From the IMG/VR virus record IMGVR_UViG_2693429622_000002: DNA of 29,630 bases; one strand, 5' to 3'. Both the position numbers and the translations under genes were made by a program. The stretch comes from a virus (taxonomy: Duplodnaviria; Heunggongvirae; Uroviricota; Caudoviricetes). The notes below the pieces were generated by a model, which was given only the letters and a program-made list of their open reading frames with translations, was not told where the DNA came from and searched no databases. This document shows positions 210 to 28,846 of the stretch, piece by piece; positions within the stretch are counted from its first letter, which is position 1, and the number at the start of each line of letters is the position of its first letter.

Positions 210-620
210 TTAGTGCGGAAATATTTGTGTAGTGTTCTGTATGTTCTCAGTAAAGAGTAATGAATTATCAAAGGTATAGTAATACCTTTTGTTTTCGTGG
301 ATATTTGTAATCCATCTGAAAACCCCTGCTGTAGCAAGATTTTTCCTGTATTCGTAAAATGATAACTCTCCTGATTTGAATCCTTTTAAGGTGGCTTCTA
401 TAAGGCATTTATTTTTTGAAAATCTTACATTTACAACCTTACCCTGTCCTTTTATTAAAACCGTATTATCGTTTTCAAGAACAAGATGAATATTCTCTGT
501 GGCTAAATAGTAAATGTAATGTGAGACATTGTGACGTTTTAGTTCAGAATAAAACCAGTGATAGTTTAAATTATTTCGCACTTTATCGAATATTTGTTTA
601 AAAATGGCAACCTGAGCCAT
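210..620 (-). CDS. Hypothetical protein, AT-rich moron-like gene (136 aa from ATG at 620 with GAAGG 7 nt upstream; 141 aa if started at 635)
   Basis: 141-codon open frame in visibly low-GC DNA, where stops should be frequent; sits between the lysis-side region and cos. No motif recognised. Confidence 0.55.
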
Positions 621-677
621 TGTAGTACCTTCCATGTGATATGAGGGGGCGTAGTCTGCACGATTATCTAAATTGCT

Positions 678-911
678 TCAATCTGGTCTAACCTGTTTTC
701 TGAGCAATTCAGTAATGTCACTCTTTTCTTTGTTTGCTTCAGGCGAAACTCTTTTTTCTGAGCACAGTCTCCGGCGGCAGGCTTCAATGACCCAGGCTGA
801 GAAATTCCCGGACCCTTTTTGAACAAGAGCGATGTTAATTTGTTCAATCATTTGGTTAGGAAAGCGGATGTTGCGGGTTGTTGTTCTGCGGGTTCTGTTC
901 TTCGTTGACAT
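678..911 (-). CDS. Small ribbon-helix-helix (Arc/MetJ/CopG-like) DNA-binding protein, 77 aa
   Basis: Translation MSTKNRTRRTTTRNIRFPNQMIEQINIALVQKGSGNFSAWVIEACRRRL: basic N-terminus, beta-strand RNIRFP, then two short helices separated by a Gly-containing turn, typical RHH layout. Family call from pattern only. The start-proximal sequence appears to lie in lambda-conserved right-end DNA, so it may be a backbone gene. Confidence 0.55.
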   Translation of the reverse strand: MSTKNRTRRTTTRNIRFPNQMIEQINIALVQKGSGNFSAWVIEACRRRLCSEKRVSPEANKEKSDITELLRKQVRPD

Positions 912-1049: not shown

Positions 1050-1290
1050 GACATGTAGATGATAATTATTATCATTTTGCGGGTCCTTTCCGGCGATCCG
1101 ACAGGTTACGGGGCGGAAGGCGCGCGGGTTTTCGCTATTTATGACAATTTTCCGGTTTAAGGCGTTTCCGTTCTTCTTCGCCGTAACCTAATGTTTTTAT
1201 TTAAAACACCCCCTGAAAAGAAAGGAAACGACAGGTGCTGAAAACGGGCTTTTTGGCCTCTGTCGTTTCCTTTCTCTGTTTTTGTCCGTG
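1050..1290 (+). promoter_or_regulatory. cos: cos packaging region: cosQ-proximal sequence, cosN nicking site, cosB with Nu1-binding R elements
   Basis: Near-identity to my recollection of the lambda right-end/left-end junction (..TCCGGCGATCCGACAGGTTACG | GGGCGG.. CGCGGGTTTTCGCTATTTATGA..). Repeated CGTTTCC/GGAAACG motifs at about 1162-1179, 1218-1236 and 1260-1275 match lambda R3/R2/R1 placement. Confidence 0.85.
1111..1122 (+). promoter_or_regulatory. cosN: cosN 12-nt cohesive-end core, divergent from lambda (GGGCGGAAGGCG versus lambda GGGCGGCGACCT)
   Basis: Position fixed by conserved flanks (ACAGGTTACG upstream, CGCGGGTTTTCGC downstream); five substitutions clustered at positions 7-10 and 12. 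Confidence 0.7.
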
Positions 1291-1299
1291 GAATGAACA

Positions 1300-1819
1300 A
1301 TGGAAGTCAACAAAAAGCAGCTGGCTGACATTTTCGGTGCGAGTATCCGTACCATTCAGAACTGGCAGGAACAGGGAATGCCCGTTCTGCGAGGCGGTGG
1401 CAAGGGTAATGAGGTGCTTTATGACTCTGCCGCCGTTATAAGATGGTATGCCGAAAGGGATGCTGAAATTGAGAACGAAAAGCTGCGCCGGGAAGTTGAA
1501 GAACTGCGGCAGGCCAGCGAGACAGATCTCCAGCCAGGGACTATTGAGTACGAACGCCATCGACTTACGCGTGCGCAGGCCGACGCACAGGAGCTGAAAA
1601 ATGCCAGAGACTCCGCTGAAGTGGTGGAAACCGCATTCTGTACTTTCGTGCTGTCGCGGATCGCAGGTGAAATTGCCAGTATTCTCGACGGGATCCCCCT
1701 GTCGGTGCAGCGGCGTTTTCCGGAACTGGAAAACCGACATGTTGATTTCCTGAAACGGGATATCATCAAAGCCATGAACAAAGCAGCCGCGCTGGATGAA
1801 CTGATACCGGGGTTGCTGA

Positions 1820-1845
<26 letters not shown>
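1300..1845 (+). CDS. nu1: Terminase small subunit Nu1 (181 aa)
   Basis: Protein begins MEVNKKQLADIFGASIRTIQNWQEQGMPVLRGGGKGNEVLYDSAAV, matching lambda Nu1 from memory; immediately downstream of cosB. Confidence 0.95.
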
Positions 1846-5526
<3,681 letters not shown>

Positions 5527-16614: not shown

Positions 16615-19600
16615 ATGGGTAAAGGCAGCAGTAAGGGGCATACCCCGCGCGAAGCGAAGGACAACCTGAAGTCCACGCAGCTGCTGAGTGTGATCGATGC
16701 CATCAGCGAAGGGCCGGTTGAAGGTCCGGTGGATGGATTAAAAAGCGTGCTGCTGAACAGTACGCCGGTGCTGGACAGTGAGGGGAATACCAACATCTCC
16801 GGCGTCACGGTGGTGTTCCGGGCAGGTGAGCAGGAGCAGTCACCGCCGGAGGGATTTGAATCCTCCGGCTCCGAGACGGTGCTGGGTACGGAAGTGAAAT
16901 ATGACACGCCGATCACCCGGACCATCACGTCGGCAAACATTGACCGACTGCGTTTTACCTTCGGTGTACAGGCACTGGTGGAAACCACCTCAAAGGGAGA
17001 CAGGAATCCGTCTGAAGTTCGCCTGCTGGTTCAGATACAGCGTAACGGTGGCTGGGTGACGGAAAAAGACATCACCATTAAGGGCAAAACCACCTCGCAG
17101 TATCTGGCCTCGGTGGTGGTGGATAACCTGCCGCCGCGCCCGTTTAATATCCGGATGCGCAGAATGACGCCGGACAGCACCACAGACCAGCTGCAGAACA
17201 AAACGCTCTGGTCGTCATACACCGAAATCATCGATGTGAAACAGTGCTACCCGAACACGGCACTGGTCGGCGTACAGGTGGATTCGGAGCAGTTCGGCAG
17301 CCAGCAGGTGAGCCGTAATTATCATCTTCGCGGGCGCATTCTGCAGGTGCCGTCGAACTATAATCCGCAGACGCGGCAATACAGCGGTATCTGGGACGGA
17401 ACGTTAAAACCGGCATACAGCAACAACATGGCCTGGTGTCTGTGGGATATGCTGACCCATCCGCGCTATGGCATGGGGAAACGTCTTGGTGCGGCAGATG
17501 TGGATAAATGGGCGCTGTATGTCATCGGCCAGTACTGTGACCAGTCGGTGCCGGACGGCTTTGGCAGCACGGAGCCGCGCATCACCTGTAATGCCTGGCT
17601 GACCACACAGCGCAAGGCGTGGGATGTGCTCAGTGATTTCTGCTCGGCGATGCGCTGTATGCCGGTATGGAACGGGCAGACGCTGACGTTCGTGCAGGAC
17701 CGACAGTCGGATAAGGTGTGGGCCTATAACCGCAGTAATGTGGTGATGCCGGATGATGGCGCGCCGTTCCGCTACAGTTTCAGCGCCCTGAAAGACCGCC
17801 ATAATGCCGTTGAGGTGAACTGGATTGACCCAGATAACGGCTGGGAGACGGCGACAGAGCTTGTGGAGGATACGCAGGCCATTGCCCGTTACGGTCGTAA
17901 TGTCACGAAGATGGATGCCTTTGGCTGTACCAGCCGGGGGCAGGCACACCGCGCCGGGCTGTGGCTGATTAAAACGGAACTGCTGGAGACGCAGACCGTG
18001 GATTTCAGCGTGGGTGCTGAAGGGCTTCGTCATGTACCGGGCGATGTCATTGAAATCTGCGATGATGACTATGCCGGTATCCGCACCGGCGGGCGCGTGC
18101 TGGCGGTGAACAGCCAGACCCGGACGCTGACGCTCGACCGTGAAATCACGCTGCCATCCTCCGGCACCACGCTGATAAGCCTGGTTGACGGGCAGGGGAA
18201 TCCGGTCAGCGTGGAGGTCCAGTCCGTCACCGACGGCGTGAAGGTAAAAGTGAGCCGTGTTCCTGACGGTGTTGCTGAATACAGCGTGTGGGGGCTGAAG
18301 CTGCCGACGCTGCACCAGCGATTGTTCCGCTGCGTGAGTATCCGTGAGAACGACGACGGCACGTATGCCATCACCGCCGTGCAGCATGTGCCGGAAAAAG
18401 AAGCCATCGTGGATAACGGGGCGCACTTTGACGGCGACCAGAGCGGCACGGTGAATGGTGTCACGCCGCCAGCGGTGCAGCACCTGACTGCCGAAGTCAC
18501 CGCAGACAGCGGGGAATATCAGGTGCTGGCGCGCTGGGACACGCCGAAGGTGGTGAAGGGCGTGAGCTTCCTGCTCCGTCTGACCGTAACAGCGGATGAC
18601 GGCAGTGAGCGGCTGGTCAGCACGGCCCGGACGACGGAAACCACTTACCGCTTCACACAACTGGCGCTGGGGAACTACAGGCTGACAGTCCGGGCAGTAA
18701 ATGCGTGGGGGCAGCAGGGCGATCCGGCGTCGGTATCGTTCCGGATTGCCGCACCGGCAGCGCTGTCGCGGATTGAGCTGACGCCGGGCTATTTTCAGAT
18801 AACCGCCACGCCGCATCTTGCGGTTTATGATCCGACGGTACAGTTTGAGTTCTGGTTCTCGGAAAAGCGGATTGCGGATATCAGGCAGGTTGAAACCACA
18901 GCACGCTATCTTGGCACGGCGCTGTACTGGATAGCCGCCAGTATCAATATCAAACCGGGCCATGATTATTACTTTTATATCCGCAGTGTGAACACCGTTG
19001 GCAAATCGGCATTCGTGGAGGCTGTTGGTCAGCCGAGTGATGATGCATCCGGTTATCTGGATTTTTTCAAAGGCGAGATAGGGAAAACCCATCTGGCTCA
19101 GGAGCTGTGGACGCAGATTGATAACGGTCAGCTTGCGCCTGACCTGGCTGAAATCAGGACGTCCATTACGGATGTCAGCAATGAAATCACGCAGACCGTC
19201 AATAAGAAACTGGAAGACCAGAGTGCGGCAATTCAGCAGATACAGAAGGTTCAGGTTGATACAAATAATAACCTGAACAGCATGTGGGCTGTGAAGCTGC
19301 AGCAGATGCAGGACGGACGCCTTTATATCGCGGGTATTGGTGCCGGTATTGAGAACACCCCTGACGGCATGCAGAGTCAGGTGCTGCTGGCGGCGGACAG
19401 GATTGCGATGGTTAATCCTGCGAATGGCAACACAAAACCGATGTTTGTTGGTCAGGGCGATCAGATATTCATGAACGACGTGTTCCTGAAACGCCTGACG
19501 GCCCCCACCATTACCAGCGGTGGAAATCCATCGGCATTTTCCCTGACTCCGGACGGAAAGCTGACCGCTAAAAATGCGGATATCAGTGGCAGTGTGAATG

Positions 19601-20112
19601 CGAACGCCGGGACGCTCAACAATGTCACGGTAAATGAAAACTGTACGATTAAGGGCATGCTGGAGGCGACTCAGGTCAGAGGTGACTTCGTTAAAGCTGT
19701 ATCCAAATCATTTCCGAAACAGGCTGGTACGTGGGGTAACACGGAAACACCAAACGGGACGGTTACAGTCACCATAAGCGATGATCATAACTTTGACCGC
19801 CAGATTATTATTCCGCCCATTATTTTTAACGGTATAGCGTATGACGATCCGGGGAGCGGAAATAACCCAGGAGGCACGCGATACACGGGTTATGGTTTTG
19901 AAGTTCGCAAAAACGGCGTATTAATCGCATCCAGAGAAACTAAAGGTGCCATTCCCGGTAGTTACAGTGCAGTTATTGATATGCCTAGTGGTGGTGGTAG
20001 CGTCACTCTGGAGTTTAAGATTTTCCAGAAAGGCAATCAGGGGGCAGGCAATATCACCGACTGTACGGTGATTGTGACCAAAAAAGCGGCTTCCGGCATC
20101 AGTATTCGTTGA
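16615..20112 (+). CDS. J: Central tail fibre / host specificity protein J (1165 aa)
   Basis: Long ORF after I with conserved J N-terminal and central regions; about 33 aa longer than the 1132-aa lambda J I recall, so the C-terminal receptor-binding region is probably different from lambda's. Confidence 0.9.
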
Positions 20113-20182: not shown

Positions 20183-20296
20183 ATGCGTAAAGTTTGTGCA
20201 GCCATTTTGTCCGCAGCCATTTGCCTGGCCGTATCCGGTGCGCCTGCATGGGCGTCTGAACATCAGTCCACGCTGAGCGCGGGGTATCTTCATGCC
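20183..20296 (+). CDS. lom: lom 5' fragment (outer-membrane Lom/Ail family), cut by the assembly gap
   Basis: MRKVCAAILSAAICLAVSGAPAWASEHQSTLSAGYLHA, identical to the start of the 24601 copy; runs into the N run. Confidence 0.7.
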
Positions 20297-20307
20297 NNNN
20301 NNNNNNN
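20297..20307. other. Assembly gap (11 N)
   Basis: Run of n characters in the sequence. Confidence 1.
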
Positions 20308-21641
20308 CGCCTGTCACTATTGAACTGATACCGGGGTATTTTCAGATAACGGCGGTCCCGAAACTGGCTGTATATGACCCGACGGTGCAGTTTGAGTTCT
20401 GGTTTTCGGAAAAGCGGATTGCGGATATCAGGCAGGTTGAAACCACAGCACGCTATCTTGGCACGGCGCTGTACTGGATAGCCGCCAGTATCAATATCAG
20501 GCCGGGCCATGATTATTATTTTTACGTTCGCAGTGTGAACACCGTTGGCAAATCGGCATTTGTGGAGGCCATCGGTCGGGCGAGCGATGATGCAGAAGGT
20601 TATCTGAATTTTTATAAAGGGTTGATCAATAAAACGCATCTCGGCAAGGAGTTGTGGACGCAGATTGATAACGGTCAGCTTGCGCCGGACCTGACTGAAA
20701 TCAGGACGTCCATTACGAATGTCAGCAATGAAATCACGCAAACCGTCAATAAAAAACTGGAAAATCAGAGTGCTGCAATCCAGCAGATACAGAAAGTTCA
20801 GGTTGATACAAATAATAACCTGAACAGCATGTGGGCTGTGAAGCTGCAACAGATGAAGGACGGACGCCTTTATATTGCGGGTATCGGTGCCGGTATTGAG
20901 AATACGCCAGCAGGAATGCAGAGTCAGGTGCTGCTGGCGGCAGACAGGATTGCGATGATTAATCCTGCGAATGGCAACACAAAGCCGATGTTTGTTGGTC
21001 AGGGCGATCAGATATTCATGAACGACGTGTTCCTGAAATGCCTGACGGCTCCGACCATTACCAGCGGCGGTAATCCTCCGGCATTTTCCCTGACACCTGG
21101 CGGACGGCTGACGGCGAAAAATGCCGATATCAGCGGTAACGTGAACGCGAACTCCGGGACGCTCAACAACGTCACGATTAATAAGAACTGTCGGGTTCTG
21201 GGAAAATTGTCCGCGAACCAGATTGAAGGCGATCTCGTTAAAACAGTGGGCAAACCTTTCCCACGGGACTCCCGGGCACCGGAGAGGTGGCCATCAGGGA
21301 CCATTACCGTCAGGGTTTATGACGATCAGCCGTTTGATCGGCAAATTGTTATTCCCGCGGTGGCGTTTCGCGGTGCTAAACATGAGCGGAAGAATAACAA
21401 TATTTATTCGTCATGCCGCCTGATAGTGAAGAAAAACGGTGCTGAAATTTATAACCGAACGACCCTGGATAATACGCTGATATATACGGGTGTTATTGAT
21501 ATGCCTGCCGGTCACGGTCACATGACGCTGGAGTTTTCTGTATCGGCATGGCTGGTAAATGGCTGGTATCCCACAGCAAGTATCAGCGATTTGCTGGTTG
21601 TGGTGATGAAGAAAGCCACTGCAGGCATCACGATTAGCTGA
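20308..21641 (+). CDS. J: J 3' fragment, variant allele (C-terminal about 444 aa; distinct receptor-binding tail ending ..[14 protein letters not shown])
   Basis: About 90% nucleotide identity by eye to 18778 onward in the conserved part, diverging strongly over the last 130 codons; 5' end missing at the gap. Confidence 0.8.
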
Positions 21642-21660
21642 ATTTTATAACCCAGATACG

Positions 21661-21686
21661 GGCACCAGAAATGGTGCCTTTTTTAT
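21661..21686 (+). terminator. Intrinsic terminator after variant J (GGCACC-AGAAAT-GGTGCC + TTTTTTATT)
   Basis: Stem differs in sequence from the 20135 copy but base pairing is kept (compensatory changes). Confidence 0.7.
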
Positions 21687-21708
21687 TGCAGAAAAGCGAG
21701 AGGTAATT

Positions 21709-22308
21709 ATGCGTAAAGTTTGTGCAGCCATTTTGTCCGCAGCCATTTGCCTGGCCGTATCCGGTGCGCCTGCATGGGCGTCTGAACATCAGTCCACGCT
21801 GAGCGCCGGGTATCTTCAGACCCATACTGATATGCCAGGCAGCGATGACCTGAAGGGCATTAACGTGAAATACCGTTATGAGTTTACGGACACGCTGGGG
21901 CTGATTACGTCATTCAGTTATGCCAACGCTGAAGATGAGCAAAAAACGCATTACAGCGATACCCGCTGGCATGAGGATTCCGTGCGTAACCGCTGGTTCA
22001 GCGTGATGGCGGGGCCGTCTGTGCGCGTGAATGAATGGTTCAGCGCGTATGCGATGGCGGGCGTGGCTTACAGCCGTGTGTCGACCTTCTCCGGGGATTA
22101 TCTCCGCGTAACTGACAACAAGGGGAAAACGCACGATGTGCTGACCGGAAGTGATGGCGGTCGCCACAGCAACACGTCTCTGGCGTGGGGGGCTGGCGTG
22201 CAGTTTAACCCGACCGAATCCGTGGCCATTGACCTTGCTTATGAAGGTTCCGGCAGTGGTGACTGGCGCACTGACGGTTTCATCGTGGGTGTCGGTTATA
22301 AGTTCTGA
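21709..22308 (+). CDS. lom: Outer membrane protein Lom (Ail/Lom family beta-barrel), intact, 199 aa
   Basis: Signal-peptide-like N-terminus; C-terminus AYEGSGSGDWRTDGFIVGVGYKF matches lambda Lom from memory; GAGAGG RBS. Confidence 0.9.
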   Translation: MRKVCAAILSAAICLAVSGAPAWASEHQSTLSAGYLQTHTDMPGSDDLKGINVKYRYEFTDTLGLITSFSYANAEDEQKTHYSDTRWHEDSVRNRWFSVMAGPSVRVNEWFSAYAMAGVAYSRVSTFSGDYLRVTDNKGKTHDVLTGSDGGRHSNTSLAWGAGVQFNPTESVAIDLAYEGSGSGDWRTDGFIVGVGYKF

Positions 22309-22335
22309 TTAGCCAGGTAACACAGTGTTATGACT

Positions 22336-22361
22336 GCCCGCTGGTTCAGGCGGGCTTTTTG
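22336..22361 (+). terminator. Intrinsic terminator after lom (GCCCGC-TGGTTCA-GGCGGGC + TTTTTGT)
   Basis: Read directly. Confidence 0.7.
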
Positions 22362-22371
22362 TGGGGTGAAT

Positions 22372-22698
22372 ATGGCAGTAAAGATTTCAGGTGTACTGAA
22401 AGATGGGGCGGGTAAACCTGTCGTAAATTGTGCGATTGAACTGCGGGCCAGAAGAACCAGTCCGACCGTTGTGGCACACGTTGTTGCCACTTGCGTGACG
22501 GACAATAACGGTGCTTATGTGATTGAGGCTGAGCCGGGGTATTACGAGGTTGCGCTTCACTGTAACGGCTGGCAGCCAACCCGTGTCGGGGATATTGATG
22601 TGGCACCGACTGATGCACCGGGGACACTGAACGCGTTTCTGAATGCACCAAAGGATGGTGATTTACGTCCGGAGGTGATGAAGTGTCAGCGCCAGTGA
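22372..22698 (+). pseudogene. stf: Side tail fibre stf, variant N-terminal domain, truncated after about 100 codons by an IS21-family insertion
   Basis: [12 protein letters not shown].. aligns with the start of the full stf at 25182 but diverges; reading frame leaves stf-like sequence right after ..DLRPE and stops at 22698 inside the IS-like DNA. Confidence 0.7.
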
Positions 22699-22927
22699 TA
22701 TAAGACGGTAATTCGCCATTTGGATTGTCCGCTCCACCCAACATGTTGTTTCCTTAAGGTTCTCACACCAGAAAGGACATCAACATGCTGAGCAGAGAGG
22801 ACTTTTACATGATAAAGCAAATGCGCCAGCAGGGCGCGTACATCGTCGATATTGCGACTCAGATTGGTTGCTCTGAACGGACGGTCAGACGCTACCTCAA
22901 ATACCCTGAACCGCCAGCCAGAAAGAC
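22684..22927 (+). mobile_element. istA: IS21-family element, 5' end only (terminal sequence plus first 47 codons of istA), cut by the assembly gap
   Basis: ORF 22785-22927 encodes MLSREDFYMIKQMRQQGAYIVDIATQIGCSERTVRRYLKYPEPPARK, which I recognise as an IS21-type IstA N-terminal HTH; boundary near 22676-22684 inferred from where the stf alignment breaks. Confidence 0.65.
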
Positions 22928-22936
22928 NNNNNNNNN
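22928..22936. other. Assembly gap (9 N)
   Basis: Run of n characters in the sequence. Confidence 1.
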
Positions 22937-24530
22937 TCAGGTGCTGGCGCGCTGGGACACGCCGAAGGTGGTGAAGGGCGTGAGCTTCCTGCTCCGTCTG
23001 ACCGTAACAGCGGATGACGGCAGTGAGCGGCTGGTCAGCACGGCCCGGACGACGGAAACCACTTACCGCTTCACACAACTGGCGCTGGGGAACTACAGGC
23101 TGACAGTCCGGGCAGTAAATGCGTGGGGGCAGCAGGGCGATCCGGCGTCGGTATCGTTCCGGATTGCCGCACCGGCAGCGCTGTCGCGGATTGAGCTGAC
23201 GCCGGGCTATTTTCAGATAACCGCCACGCCGCATCTTGCGGTTTATGATCCGACGGTACAGTTTGAGTTCTGGTTCTCGGAAAAGCGGATTGCGGATATC
23301 AGGCAGGTTGAAACCACAGCACGCTATCTTGGCACGGCGCTGTACTGGATAGCCGCCAGTATCAATATCAAACCGGGCCATGATTATTACTTTTATATCC
23401 GCAGTGTGAACACCGTTGGCAAATCGGCATTCGTGGAGGCTGTTGGTCAGCCGAGTGATGATGCATCCGGTTATCTGGATTTTTTCAAAGGCGAGATAGG
23501 GAAAACCCATCTGGCTCAGGAGCTGTGGACGCAGATTGATAACGGTCAGCTTGCGCCTGACCTGGCTGAAATCAGGACGTCCATTACGGATGTCAGCAAT
23601 GAAATCACGCAGACCGTCAATAAGAAACTGGAAGACCAGAGTGCGGCAATTCAGCAGATACAGAAGGTTCAGGTTGATACAAATAATAACCTGAACAGCA
23701 TGTGGGCTGTGAAGCTGCAGCAGATGCAGGACGGACGCCTTTATATCGCGGGTATTGGTGCCGGTATTGAGAACACCCCTGACGGCATGCAGAGTCAGGT
23801 GCTGCTGGCGGCGGACAGGATTGCGATGGTTAATCCTGCGAATGGCAACACAAAACCGATGTTTGTTGGTCAGGGCGATCAGATATTCATGAACGACGTG
23901 TTCCTGAAACGCCTGACGGCCCCCACCATTACCAGCGGTGGAAATCCATCGGCATTTTCCCTGACTCCGGACGGAAAGCTGACCGCTAAAAATGCGGATA
24001 TCAGTGGCAGTGTGAATGCGAACGCCGGGACGCTCAACAATGTCACGGTAAATGAAAACTGTACGATTAAGGGCATGCTGGAGGCGACTCAGGTCAGAGG
24101 TGACTTCGTTAAAGCTGTATCCAAATCATTTCCGAAACAGGCTGGTACGTGGGGTAACACGGAAACACCAAACGGGACGGTTACAGTCACCATAAGCGAT
24201 GATCATAACTTTGACCGCCAGATTATTATTCCGCCCATTATTTTTAACGGTATAGCGTATGACGATCCGGGGAGCGGAAATAACCCAGGAGGCACGCGAT
24301 ACACGGGTTATGGTTTTGAAGTTCGCAAAAACGGCGTATTAATCGCATCCAGAGAAACTAAAGGTGCCATTCCCGGTAGTTACAGTGCAGTTATTGATAT
24401 GCCTAGTGGTGGTGGTAGCGTCACTCTGGAGTTTAAGATTTTCCAGAAAGGCAATCAGGGGGCAGGCAATATCACCGACTGTACGGTGATTGTGACCAAA
24501 AAAGCGGCTTCCGGCATCAGTATTCGTTGA
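22937..24530 (+). CDS. J: J 3' fragment (C-terminal 531 codons), exact duplicate of 18519-20112
   Basis: Nucleotide-identical to the corresponding part of the full J as far as I compared; 5' end missing at the gap. Confidence 0.8.
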
Positions 24531-24552
24531 AATATTTATAACCCCAATAAAT

Positions 24553-24578
24553 GGCGTCAGGAATGACGCCTTTTTTAT
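24553..24578 (+). terminator. Intrinsic terminator after J (duplicate of 20135-20160)
   Basis: Identical hairpin and U-tract. Confidence 0.7.
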
Positions 24579-24600
24579 TGCAGAAAAGCGAGAGGTAATT

Positions 24601-25083
24601 ATGCGTAAAGTTTGTGCAGCCATTTTGTCCGCAGCCATTTGCCTGGCCGTATCCGGTGCGCCTGCATGGGCGTCTGAACATCAGTCCACGCTGAGCGCGG
24701 GGTATCTTCATGCCCGGACCAACGTTCCCGGCAGTGATGATCTGAACGGGATTAACGTGAAATACCGTTATGAGTTTACGGATACGCTGGGGCTGGTGAC
24801 GTCATTCAGCTATGCAGGAGACAAGAATCGCCAGCTGACCCGTTACAGCGATACCCGCTGGCATGAAGATTCCGTGCGTAACCGCTGGTTCAGCGTGATG
24901 GCGGGGCCGTCTGTGCGCGTGAATGAATGGTTCAGCGCGTATGCGATGGCGGGTGTGGCTTACAGCCGTGTGTCGACTTTTTCCGGGGATTATATCCGCG
25001 TAACTGACAATAAGGGGAAAACGCACGATGTGCTGACCGGAAGTGATGACGGTCGCCACAGCAACACGTCTCTGGCGCACTGA
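24601..25083 (+). pseudogene. lom: lom with an 83-bp internal deletion near the 3' end (frameshift, premature stop; C-terminal strands lost)
   Basis: Compared with 21709-22308: ..TCTGGCG[83 bp missing]CACTGACGG..; the deletion is flanked by a CTGGCG direct repeat in the intact copy; ORF ends ..NTSLAH*. Confidence 0.75.
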
Positions 25084-28100: not shown

Positions 28101-28265
28101 ACAGCAGCATCTGCGGGTGCACACGCGCATACTGTCGGTATTGGTGCTCATACGCACTCTGTTGCGATTGGTTCACATGGACACACCATCACCGTTAACG
28201 CTGCTGGTAACGCGGAAAACACCGTCAAAAACATCGCATTTAACTATATTGTGAGGCTCGCATAA
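25182..28265 (+). CDS. stf: Side tail fibre protein Stf (about 1027 aa from ATG 25182): N-terminal attachment domain, long Ala/Ser/Thr-rich repetitive shaft, C-terminal tip with repeated His-x-His motifs
   Basis: N-terminus [67 protein letters not shown] matches lambda Stf from memory; tip motifs [52 protein letters not shown] at about 27770-28195; GTG at 25176 is likely a track artefact. Confidence 0.9.
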
Positions 28266-28846
28266 TGGCATTCAGAATGAGTGAACAAGCACGGACCATA
28301 AAAATTTATAACCTGCTGGCCGGAACTAATGAATTTATTGGTGAAGGTGACGCATATATTCCGCCTCATACAGGTCTGCCTGCAAACAGTACCGATATTG
28401 CACCGCCAGATATTCCGGCTGGTTTCGTGGCTGTTTTCAACAGTGATGAGTCATCGTGGCATCTCGTTGAAGATCATCGGGGTAAAACGGTTTATGACGT
28501 GGCTTCCGGCGACGCGTTATTTATTTCTGAACTCGGCTCATTACCGGAAAATGTCACCTGGTTATCCCCGGAAGGGGAGTTTCAGAAGTGGAACGGCACA
28601 GCCTGGGTGAAGGATACGGAAGCAGAAAAACTGTTCCGGATCCGGGAGGCGGAAGAAACAAAAAACAGCCTGATGCAGGTAGCCAGTGAGCATATAGCGC
28701 CGCTTCAGGATGCTGTGGATCTGGAGATCGCAACGGAGAAAGAAACCTTGTTGCTGGAAGCTTGGAAAAAGTATCGGGTGTTGCTGAACCGTGTTGATAC
28801 ATCAACTGCACCGGATATTGAATGGCCAGTAGCACCTATAGGGTAA
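28265..28846 (+). CDS. tfa: Tail fibre assembly chaperone Tfa (193 aa)
   Basis: [54 protein letters not shown] matches lambda Tfa from memory; ATG overlaps the stf stop (TAATG). Confidence 0.9.

Follow-up and report, generated by a model that had tools for sequence, protein, structure and literature searches.

The window analyzed here, a 29,630-nt stretch of DNA that covered only the late region of a prophage, very probably contains a working lambda-type cos site with a natural minority allele of cosN, tolerated in the sequence-insensitive right half of the site and moved by recombination. The variant core, GGGCGGAAGGCG, was located at nt 1111–1122 on the plus strand and occurred once in the window; its lambda counterpart is GGGCGGCGACCT, and an exact search of the whole 29,630 nt found no copy of this canonical sequence. 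When the right and left ends of lambda (NC_001416) were joined and the junction was aligned with nt 901–1300 of the window, the cohesive ends were identical at positions 1–6 and 11 and differed at positions 7 (C to A), 8 (G to A), 9 (A to G), 10 (C to G) and 12 (T to G). A first-pass annotation had reported five core substitutions within lambda-like flanks; its coordinates and base calls were exact, and the alignment confirmed the substitutions.

The cos site and terminase genes of the window

The core was preceded by ...GGGTCCTTTCCGGCGATCCGACAGGTTACG and followed by CGCGGGTTTTCGCTATTTATGA..., and a single mismatch with lambda was present on each side, within the 30 nt on the left and within the first 33 nt on the right. 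Over the approximately 388 flanking positions aligned, about 17 mismatches and 1 indel were found (ca. 4.6%). At this flank rate, the probability of at least 5 changes in 6 adjacent positions was calculated to be about 1e-6, indicating that the cluster of substitutions in the core is real and non-random. With 5 of 12 positions different, the sequence fell outside the canonical cohesive-end group represented by lambda, 21, phi80 and 434. The predicted stability of the annealed ends was nearly unaltered, with a nearest-neighbour duplex free energy of -17.8 kcal/mol for the variant core versus -18.2 kcal/mol for that of lambda, and a G+C content of 10/12 in each. Rotational symmetry of the 16-bp cosN was reduced from 10 matched positions in lambda to 8 in the variant; since functional asymmetry of cosN is documented, this drop should not matter.

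The remainder of the site was that of lambda. The 16-bp cosN, consisting of CG, GGGCGGAAGGCG and CG, occupied nt 1109–1124 (plus strand) in a column-for-column alignment with the lambda junction, in which the left half GGGCGG and the CG pairs at nt 1109–1110 and 1123–1124 were identical to lambda; the window sequence and the lambda alignment placed the variant right half, AAGGCG, at nt 1117–1122 (plus strand). Upstream, an exact and single copy of the cosQ heptamer GGGTCCT, the packaging-termination signal, was present at nt 1081–1087 (plus strand) with the lambda spacing to the nick, which we take to be the equivalent of lambda bp 48473–48479. Downstream, the cosB element R3 (AGGCGTTTCCGTTCTT, nt 1160–1175, plus strand) was identical to lambda R3 (bp 50–65) and located at the same distance from cosN; R3, the extent of which was taken from PMC9026076, is the TerS binding site nearest to cosN. 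R2 (nt 1219–1234, minus strand) and R1 (nt 1260–1275, plus strand) shared one exact 16-mer, CTGTCGTTTCCTTTCT, identical to that of lambda, while the region between R3 and R2 (nt 1176–1218, plus strand), a putative IHF site I1 assigned by alignment with lambda alone, had several substitutions. Thus GGGCGG and the two CG pairs 12 bp apart, the cosQ spacing, R3, R2 and R1 were all found as in a lambda-type cos, followed by genes for Nu1 and gpA, and the window differed from the lambda elements only at the five cohesive-end positions.

Both terminase genes were intact. The nu1 gene (nt 1300–1845, plus strand) encoded a TerS of 181 aa (Pfam Phage_Nu1, E=2.4e-101), 178 of which (98%) were identical to lambda Nu1, and gene A (nt 1820–3745, plus strand) encoded a TerL (gpA) of 641 aa with the Pfam domains GpA_ATPase (1.3e-50) and GpA_nuclease (1.8e-74), sharing 637 of the 641 residues (99%) with lambda gpA. 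The four differences were T151S, D185E, L404R and T466I. L404R (codon 404, nt 3029–3031) falls in the nuclease domain and was found in 3 of the 44 TerL proteins adjoining the variant allele versus none of the 32 adjoining the canonical one; it is too rare to account for the allele, although it could affect this particular enzyme. The head and tail ORFs from W to J, as well as stf and tfa, were all open.

By analogy with lambda, Nu1 (TerS) would bind R3, R2 and R1 of cosB, IHF would bend the DNA at I1, and TerS would thereby place two gpA (TerL) nuclease centres on cosN. TerL would then nick the top strand between nt 1110 and 1111 and the bottom strand between nt 1122 and 1123, giving virion DNA with 12-nt 5′ overhangs, 5′-GGGCGGAAGGCG at the left end and its complement 5′-CGCCTTCCGCCC at the right end. 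These nick positions, as well as packaging by this particular prophage, are inferred from the sequence; no contig or record retrieved from IMG/VR and the metagenomes (scanned without a left-flank requirement) or from the phage records (44-mer search) began or stopped at the predicted nick. As the right half lies beside cosB, where TerL would be held by TerS, nicking would be insensitive to the sequence of this half, and as both chromosome ends derive from copies of one site, any change in the right half stays complementary. Sequence-insensitive nicking and automatic complementarity would together allow such an allele to be tolerated, to drift, and to be exchanged among phages through recombination in or close to cos.

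A different explanation, also raised in the first-pass annotation, is mutational decay, in which the cos of a defective prophage no longer packages DNA and substitutions accumulate in the unused site. Compatible with it are the coverage of the window, which is restricted to the late region, the rearranged tail-fibre end (nt 20292–25083), where two additional C-terminal fragments of J occur along with a truncated lom, and the rare L404R in gpA. However, five changes in six bases would not be expected of decay while cosQ, the left half, R3, R2, R1 and 20-odd late ORFs stayed intact, nor would the presence of the same hexamer in many diverged backgrounds, deposited phages included (see below). 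The confinement of the changes, the intact packaging module and the recurrence across lineages thus make decay very improbable.

Recurrence of the variant allele

To retrieve the allele in its context, 44-nt queries were used in which each 28-nt seed word must span the entire core. In complete E. coli genomes, the variant 44-mer was found in 169 places in 158 of 5,426 genomes and the canonical 44-mer in 8,393 places in 4,474 genomes; the variant accounts for about 2% of the E. coli lambda-type cos sites. Exact-pattern scans detected the variant core in 82 contigs of IMG/VR and in 31 contigs of metagenomes, the sources of which included human gut and food. The 44-mer search also retrieved two deposited N15-like phage genomes, PhiR46_1 and YDC107_1. 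The former has annotated telL and telR and the host field ECOR13 (E. coli), and it was regarded as a plaque-forming isolate on the basis of this GenBank host field alone; the latter is classified as a Ravinvirus. In a scan of one genome per species by 20-mer match, 16 matches were obtained, of which only Escherichia sp. E1V33 was relevant; the other 15, from GC-rich non-enteric genomes, were taken as chance matches. A full-text search for the 12-mer in either orientation and for 11-mer cores, the scope of which did not include the survey of Vahanian et al. 2017, gave only unrelated eukaryotic and primer matches and no phage paper naming the allele.

These data bear on the possibility that the core is an assembly or sequencing artefact at phage genome ends and that the true sequence is GGGCGGCGACCT. 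Mis-assembly can affect the termini of linear virion DNA in general, and nothing specific to the present case was found. Against this, the identical 12-mer with matching flanks was recovered from unrelated projects, in the 158 complete E. coli genomes, the 82 contigs of IMG/VR, the 31 from metagenomes and the two phages; furthermore, cos in prophages and plasmid-prophages does not lie at a molecule end but inside. The assembly error at virion ends suggested in the first-pass annotation is therefore countered by recurrence in independent assemblies and by the internal location of cos in prophages, and can practically be dismissed. The remaining suggestion of that annotation, a true altered cohesive end, gains support from recurrence in hundreds of assemblies and from the intact terminase and morphogenesis genes, as far as can be judged from sequence data.

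The allele was observed in a variety of genetic backgrounds. In IMG/VR, it occurred in about 20 distinct 30-nt left-flank haplotypes, essentially all of which retained the cosQ heptamer, and together with three cosB/TerS types, namely lambda-type, 21-type and a third type, each of which was also seen with the canonical core. Likewise, both alleles were seen with the left flank found most often (GGGTCCTTTCCGGCGATCCGACAGGTTACG) and with the most frequent right flank. A SNP located about 55 bp downstream was linked to the allele, with TTCGCC or TTCTCC accompanying the variant and TTCGTC the canonical core, and recombinants between the core and this SNP were present in both directions. The allele thus looks like an old haplotype that was spread by recombination rather than one arising by recurrent mutation.

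Across the IMG/VR loci, the segment from cosN through about 33 bp rightward (CGCGGGTTTTCGCTATTTATGAAAATTTTCCGG) was nearly invariant, and the cosQ-cosN interval and cosB were widely diverged. The comparison suggests that cos acts as the junction at which lambdoid genomes recombine their left and right arms.

Variation and tolerance in cosN's right half

In lambda, many mutations in bp 7–12 of cosN have minimal effect, whereas the symmetric changes in the left half are severe; for example, G2C reduces the yield about 10-fold while C11G has no phenotype (Feiss et al. 2015, PMC4669245). This asymmetry was ascribed to the closeness of the right half to cosB, with TerS at R3 anchoring TerL, and the CG pairs flanking cosN as well as cosQ are conserved (PMC4669245). 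Natural variation is likewise restricted to positions 7–12, as in N15 and phiD326 (positions 9 and 12) and Gifsy-1 (positions 8, 9 and 11) (PMC4669245), and the cohesive end of LLS and mEp213 is GGGCGGCGCGCT (2025, PMC12315714). The window fits this naturally variable class, since its changes lie only within positions 7–12 and positions 1–6 and the CG pairs are unchanged; the variant adds a natural allele to those already known from this half of cosN. It had been assumed in the first-pass annotation that the cohesive end is highly conserved, which applies to positions 1–6 and the nick-flanking CG pairs but not to positions 7–12, which are mutationally tolerant and naturally variable (PMC4669245). 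Clustering of the substitutions in positions 7–12 is therefore the expected pattern and no anomaly.

Likeness to the known systems was partial. The cohesive end of N15 (NC_001901) was confirmed as GGGCGGCGTCCG, in which, as in the window, natural changes are confined to the right half and position 12 is G; however, N15 has 2 changes from lambda versus 5 in the window, and it possesses its own cosB with a single R3 and no IHF site and a TerL about 65% identical to that of lambda, whereas the rest of cos and the terminase of the window are those of lambda. In Gifsy-1 and mEp213/LLS, all differences from lambda also fall in positions 7–12, but the hexamers are others, with 2 to 3 changes, and the head genes and flanks are far more diverged from lambda. 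Engineered lambda right-half mutants, such as C11G, exhibit the sequence-insensitive cosB-proximal nicking (PMC4669245) that is the mechanism proposed for the window, yet they carry single or few laboratory changes in contrast to the natural five-base haplotype found here, and the published right-half tolerance covers single and double changes, not five together.

To catalogue the alleles in IMG/VR, scans were run with the left half and a lambda-like right flank fixed and the canonical hexamer excluded, a design whose range did not extend to changes at position 10 only or position 11 only. AAGGCG was found in 78 contigs, followed by CAGGCG in 4, CAGACG in 3, and AGACCT, TGACCT and GAGCGT in 2 each, while CGACCG, CTGACG, AAGCGT, AAGGCT and CAACCT were each found in 1; at least 10 further rare right-half alleles thus exist besides AAGGCG. 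A single step separates CAACCT and CGACCG from lambda and, likewise, CAGGCG and AAGGCT from the variant, so that the mutational paths linking the two common alleles can be seen in part. A scan for position 9 other than A combined with C7 and T12 gave zero matches in IMG/VR. Among the first 120 IMG/VR contigs listed without exclusion of the canonical hexamer, 115 were canonical, 3 carried AAGGCG, 1 carried CGACCG, and 1 had a left-half change (GGGCGA). Conservation of C11 was considered as a functional clue and rejected, as C11G has no phenotype (PMC4669245) and both GAGCGT and AAGCGT have G at position 11.

To compare the terminases adjoining the alleles, 93 full-length TerL proteins were extracted. 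At 10% distance, 82 of them formed one cluster (80 at 3%), which held both alleles, and four TerL sequences of 641 aa and four TerS sequences, 100% identical, adjoined both alleles. The largest difference in column frequency between TerL proteins of the two allele classes was at most 0.36. Association of the allele with a particular TerL clade or a diagnostic residue was therefore rejected, identical proteins being found beside both alleles; as judged from these sequences, the terminase does not appear to track the cosN allele.

These comparisons also bear on the idea that the variant is a functionally distinct cosN, with a co-adapted terminase required or the nicks shifted, which would confer novel specificity in packaging or cleavage. 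Of the six right-half positions, five are changed, more than in any allele in the literature compared, and the symmetry pattern of the site is altered, as such a reading would have it. However, identical TerL and TerS proteins lie beside both alleles with no diagnostic residue, the CG pairs at the nicks and the spacing from cosN to R3 are unchanged, and the lambda and N15 terminases show no cosN specificity, lambda terminase using cosN-N15 equally well (PMC4669245). A distinct specificity is therefore most unlikely, and the AAGGCG cosN is in all likelihood cut by ordinary lambda terminase, as predicted from the sequences.

In complete E. coli genomes, AAGGCG was over-represented on plasmids of about 46 kb, which accounted for 16 of its 169 places versus 20 of the 8,393 canonical places (odds ratio about 44, Fisher p about 1e-18). 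Examples of these loci are NZ_CP101200.1, PV340565.1 and CP025712.1. The three carriers inspected proved to be N15-like prophages whose head, tail and packaging module were those of lambda; a protelomerase and a CyRepA1 replication protein were present in one, telL and telR were annotated in another, and the third is classified as a Ravinvirus.

This enrichment can be read in terms of selection for a cohesive-end compatibility group, whose members would be isolated from exchange with, or parasitism by, canonical-cos elements because chromosomes with mixed cos ends, mismatched at 5 of 12 positions, would fail to circularise. A 2-nt cohesive-end mismatch is viable but already lowers the yield about four-fold (PMC4669245), and the population is near-dimorphic, with one major and one minor allele and the others in no more than 4 contigs each; the ca. 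44-fold enrichment on N15-like plasmid prophages points in the same direction. On the other hand, rolling-circle concatemers carry identical cos sites, so that mismatched ends would arise only from rare mixed concatemers, and the free shuffling of the allele across flanks and cosB types argues against isolation, while both the near-dimorphism and the plasmid enrichment may simply stem from ancestry. Selection of this kind is accordingly improbable for the present allele, and there is a slightly better, still small chance that the cosN right half defines compatibility groups in general among lambda-like phages, N15-like plasmid prophages and cos-hijacking satellites. If it did, the two common alleles would hinder mixed packaging and selection would keep them separate, and the strong excess of AAGGCG among N15-like plasmids would reflect such grouping.

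For a minority allele tolerated in the right half and moved by recombination, the reading preferred here, the consequences are small for biology and somewhat greater for practice. Annotation and terminus prediction that rely on literal searches for the lambda 12-mer overlook cos in about 2% of E. coli lambda-type prophages and, among N15-like plasmid prophages, in a large proportion. The survey of alleles amounts to a natural mutagenesis map, in which positions 1–6 and the CG pairs are fixed and positions 7–12 accept at least 12 hexamers with the same terminase, and it supports the published model that anchoring by TerS frees cosB-proximal nicking from sequence. In addition, the two common alleles provide a natural 5-nt mismatch pair for probing how much complementarity is needed in circularisation.

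Neighbouring features of the window

Upstream of cos, nt 210–911 (minus strand) encoded a DUF1398 protein (nt 210–635) and a DUF3950/YlcI-like protein (nt 678–911), whereas lambda has bor, lambdap78 and lambdap79 in this region. In a related variant-cos prophage of APEC strain E14033, iss was found at the same upstream place.

At the other end of the late region, a full-length J (nt 16615–20112, 1165 aa) was followed by two additional J C-terminal cassettes. The first (nt 20292–21641, 449 aa) possessed the domains Ig_J_second, Phage_Tail_Tip and Ig_GpJ_C and was followed by a full lom (nt 21709–22308); the second (nt 22785–24530, 581 aa) possessed the same three domains plus Ig_J, with a weak N-terminal match to HTH_23, and was followed by a truncated lom (nt 24601–25083, Ail_Lom positions 1–159 of 199) and then by stf and tfa. 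This array looks like tandem repeats of a receptor-binding domain and lom, or recombination scars. Within tfa (nt 28265–28846), a full-length match to Rfam RF02111 'IS009' was located at nt 28608–28806 (plus strand), with 218 bits versus a gathering score of 117 (E=1.5e-53).
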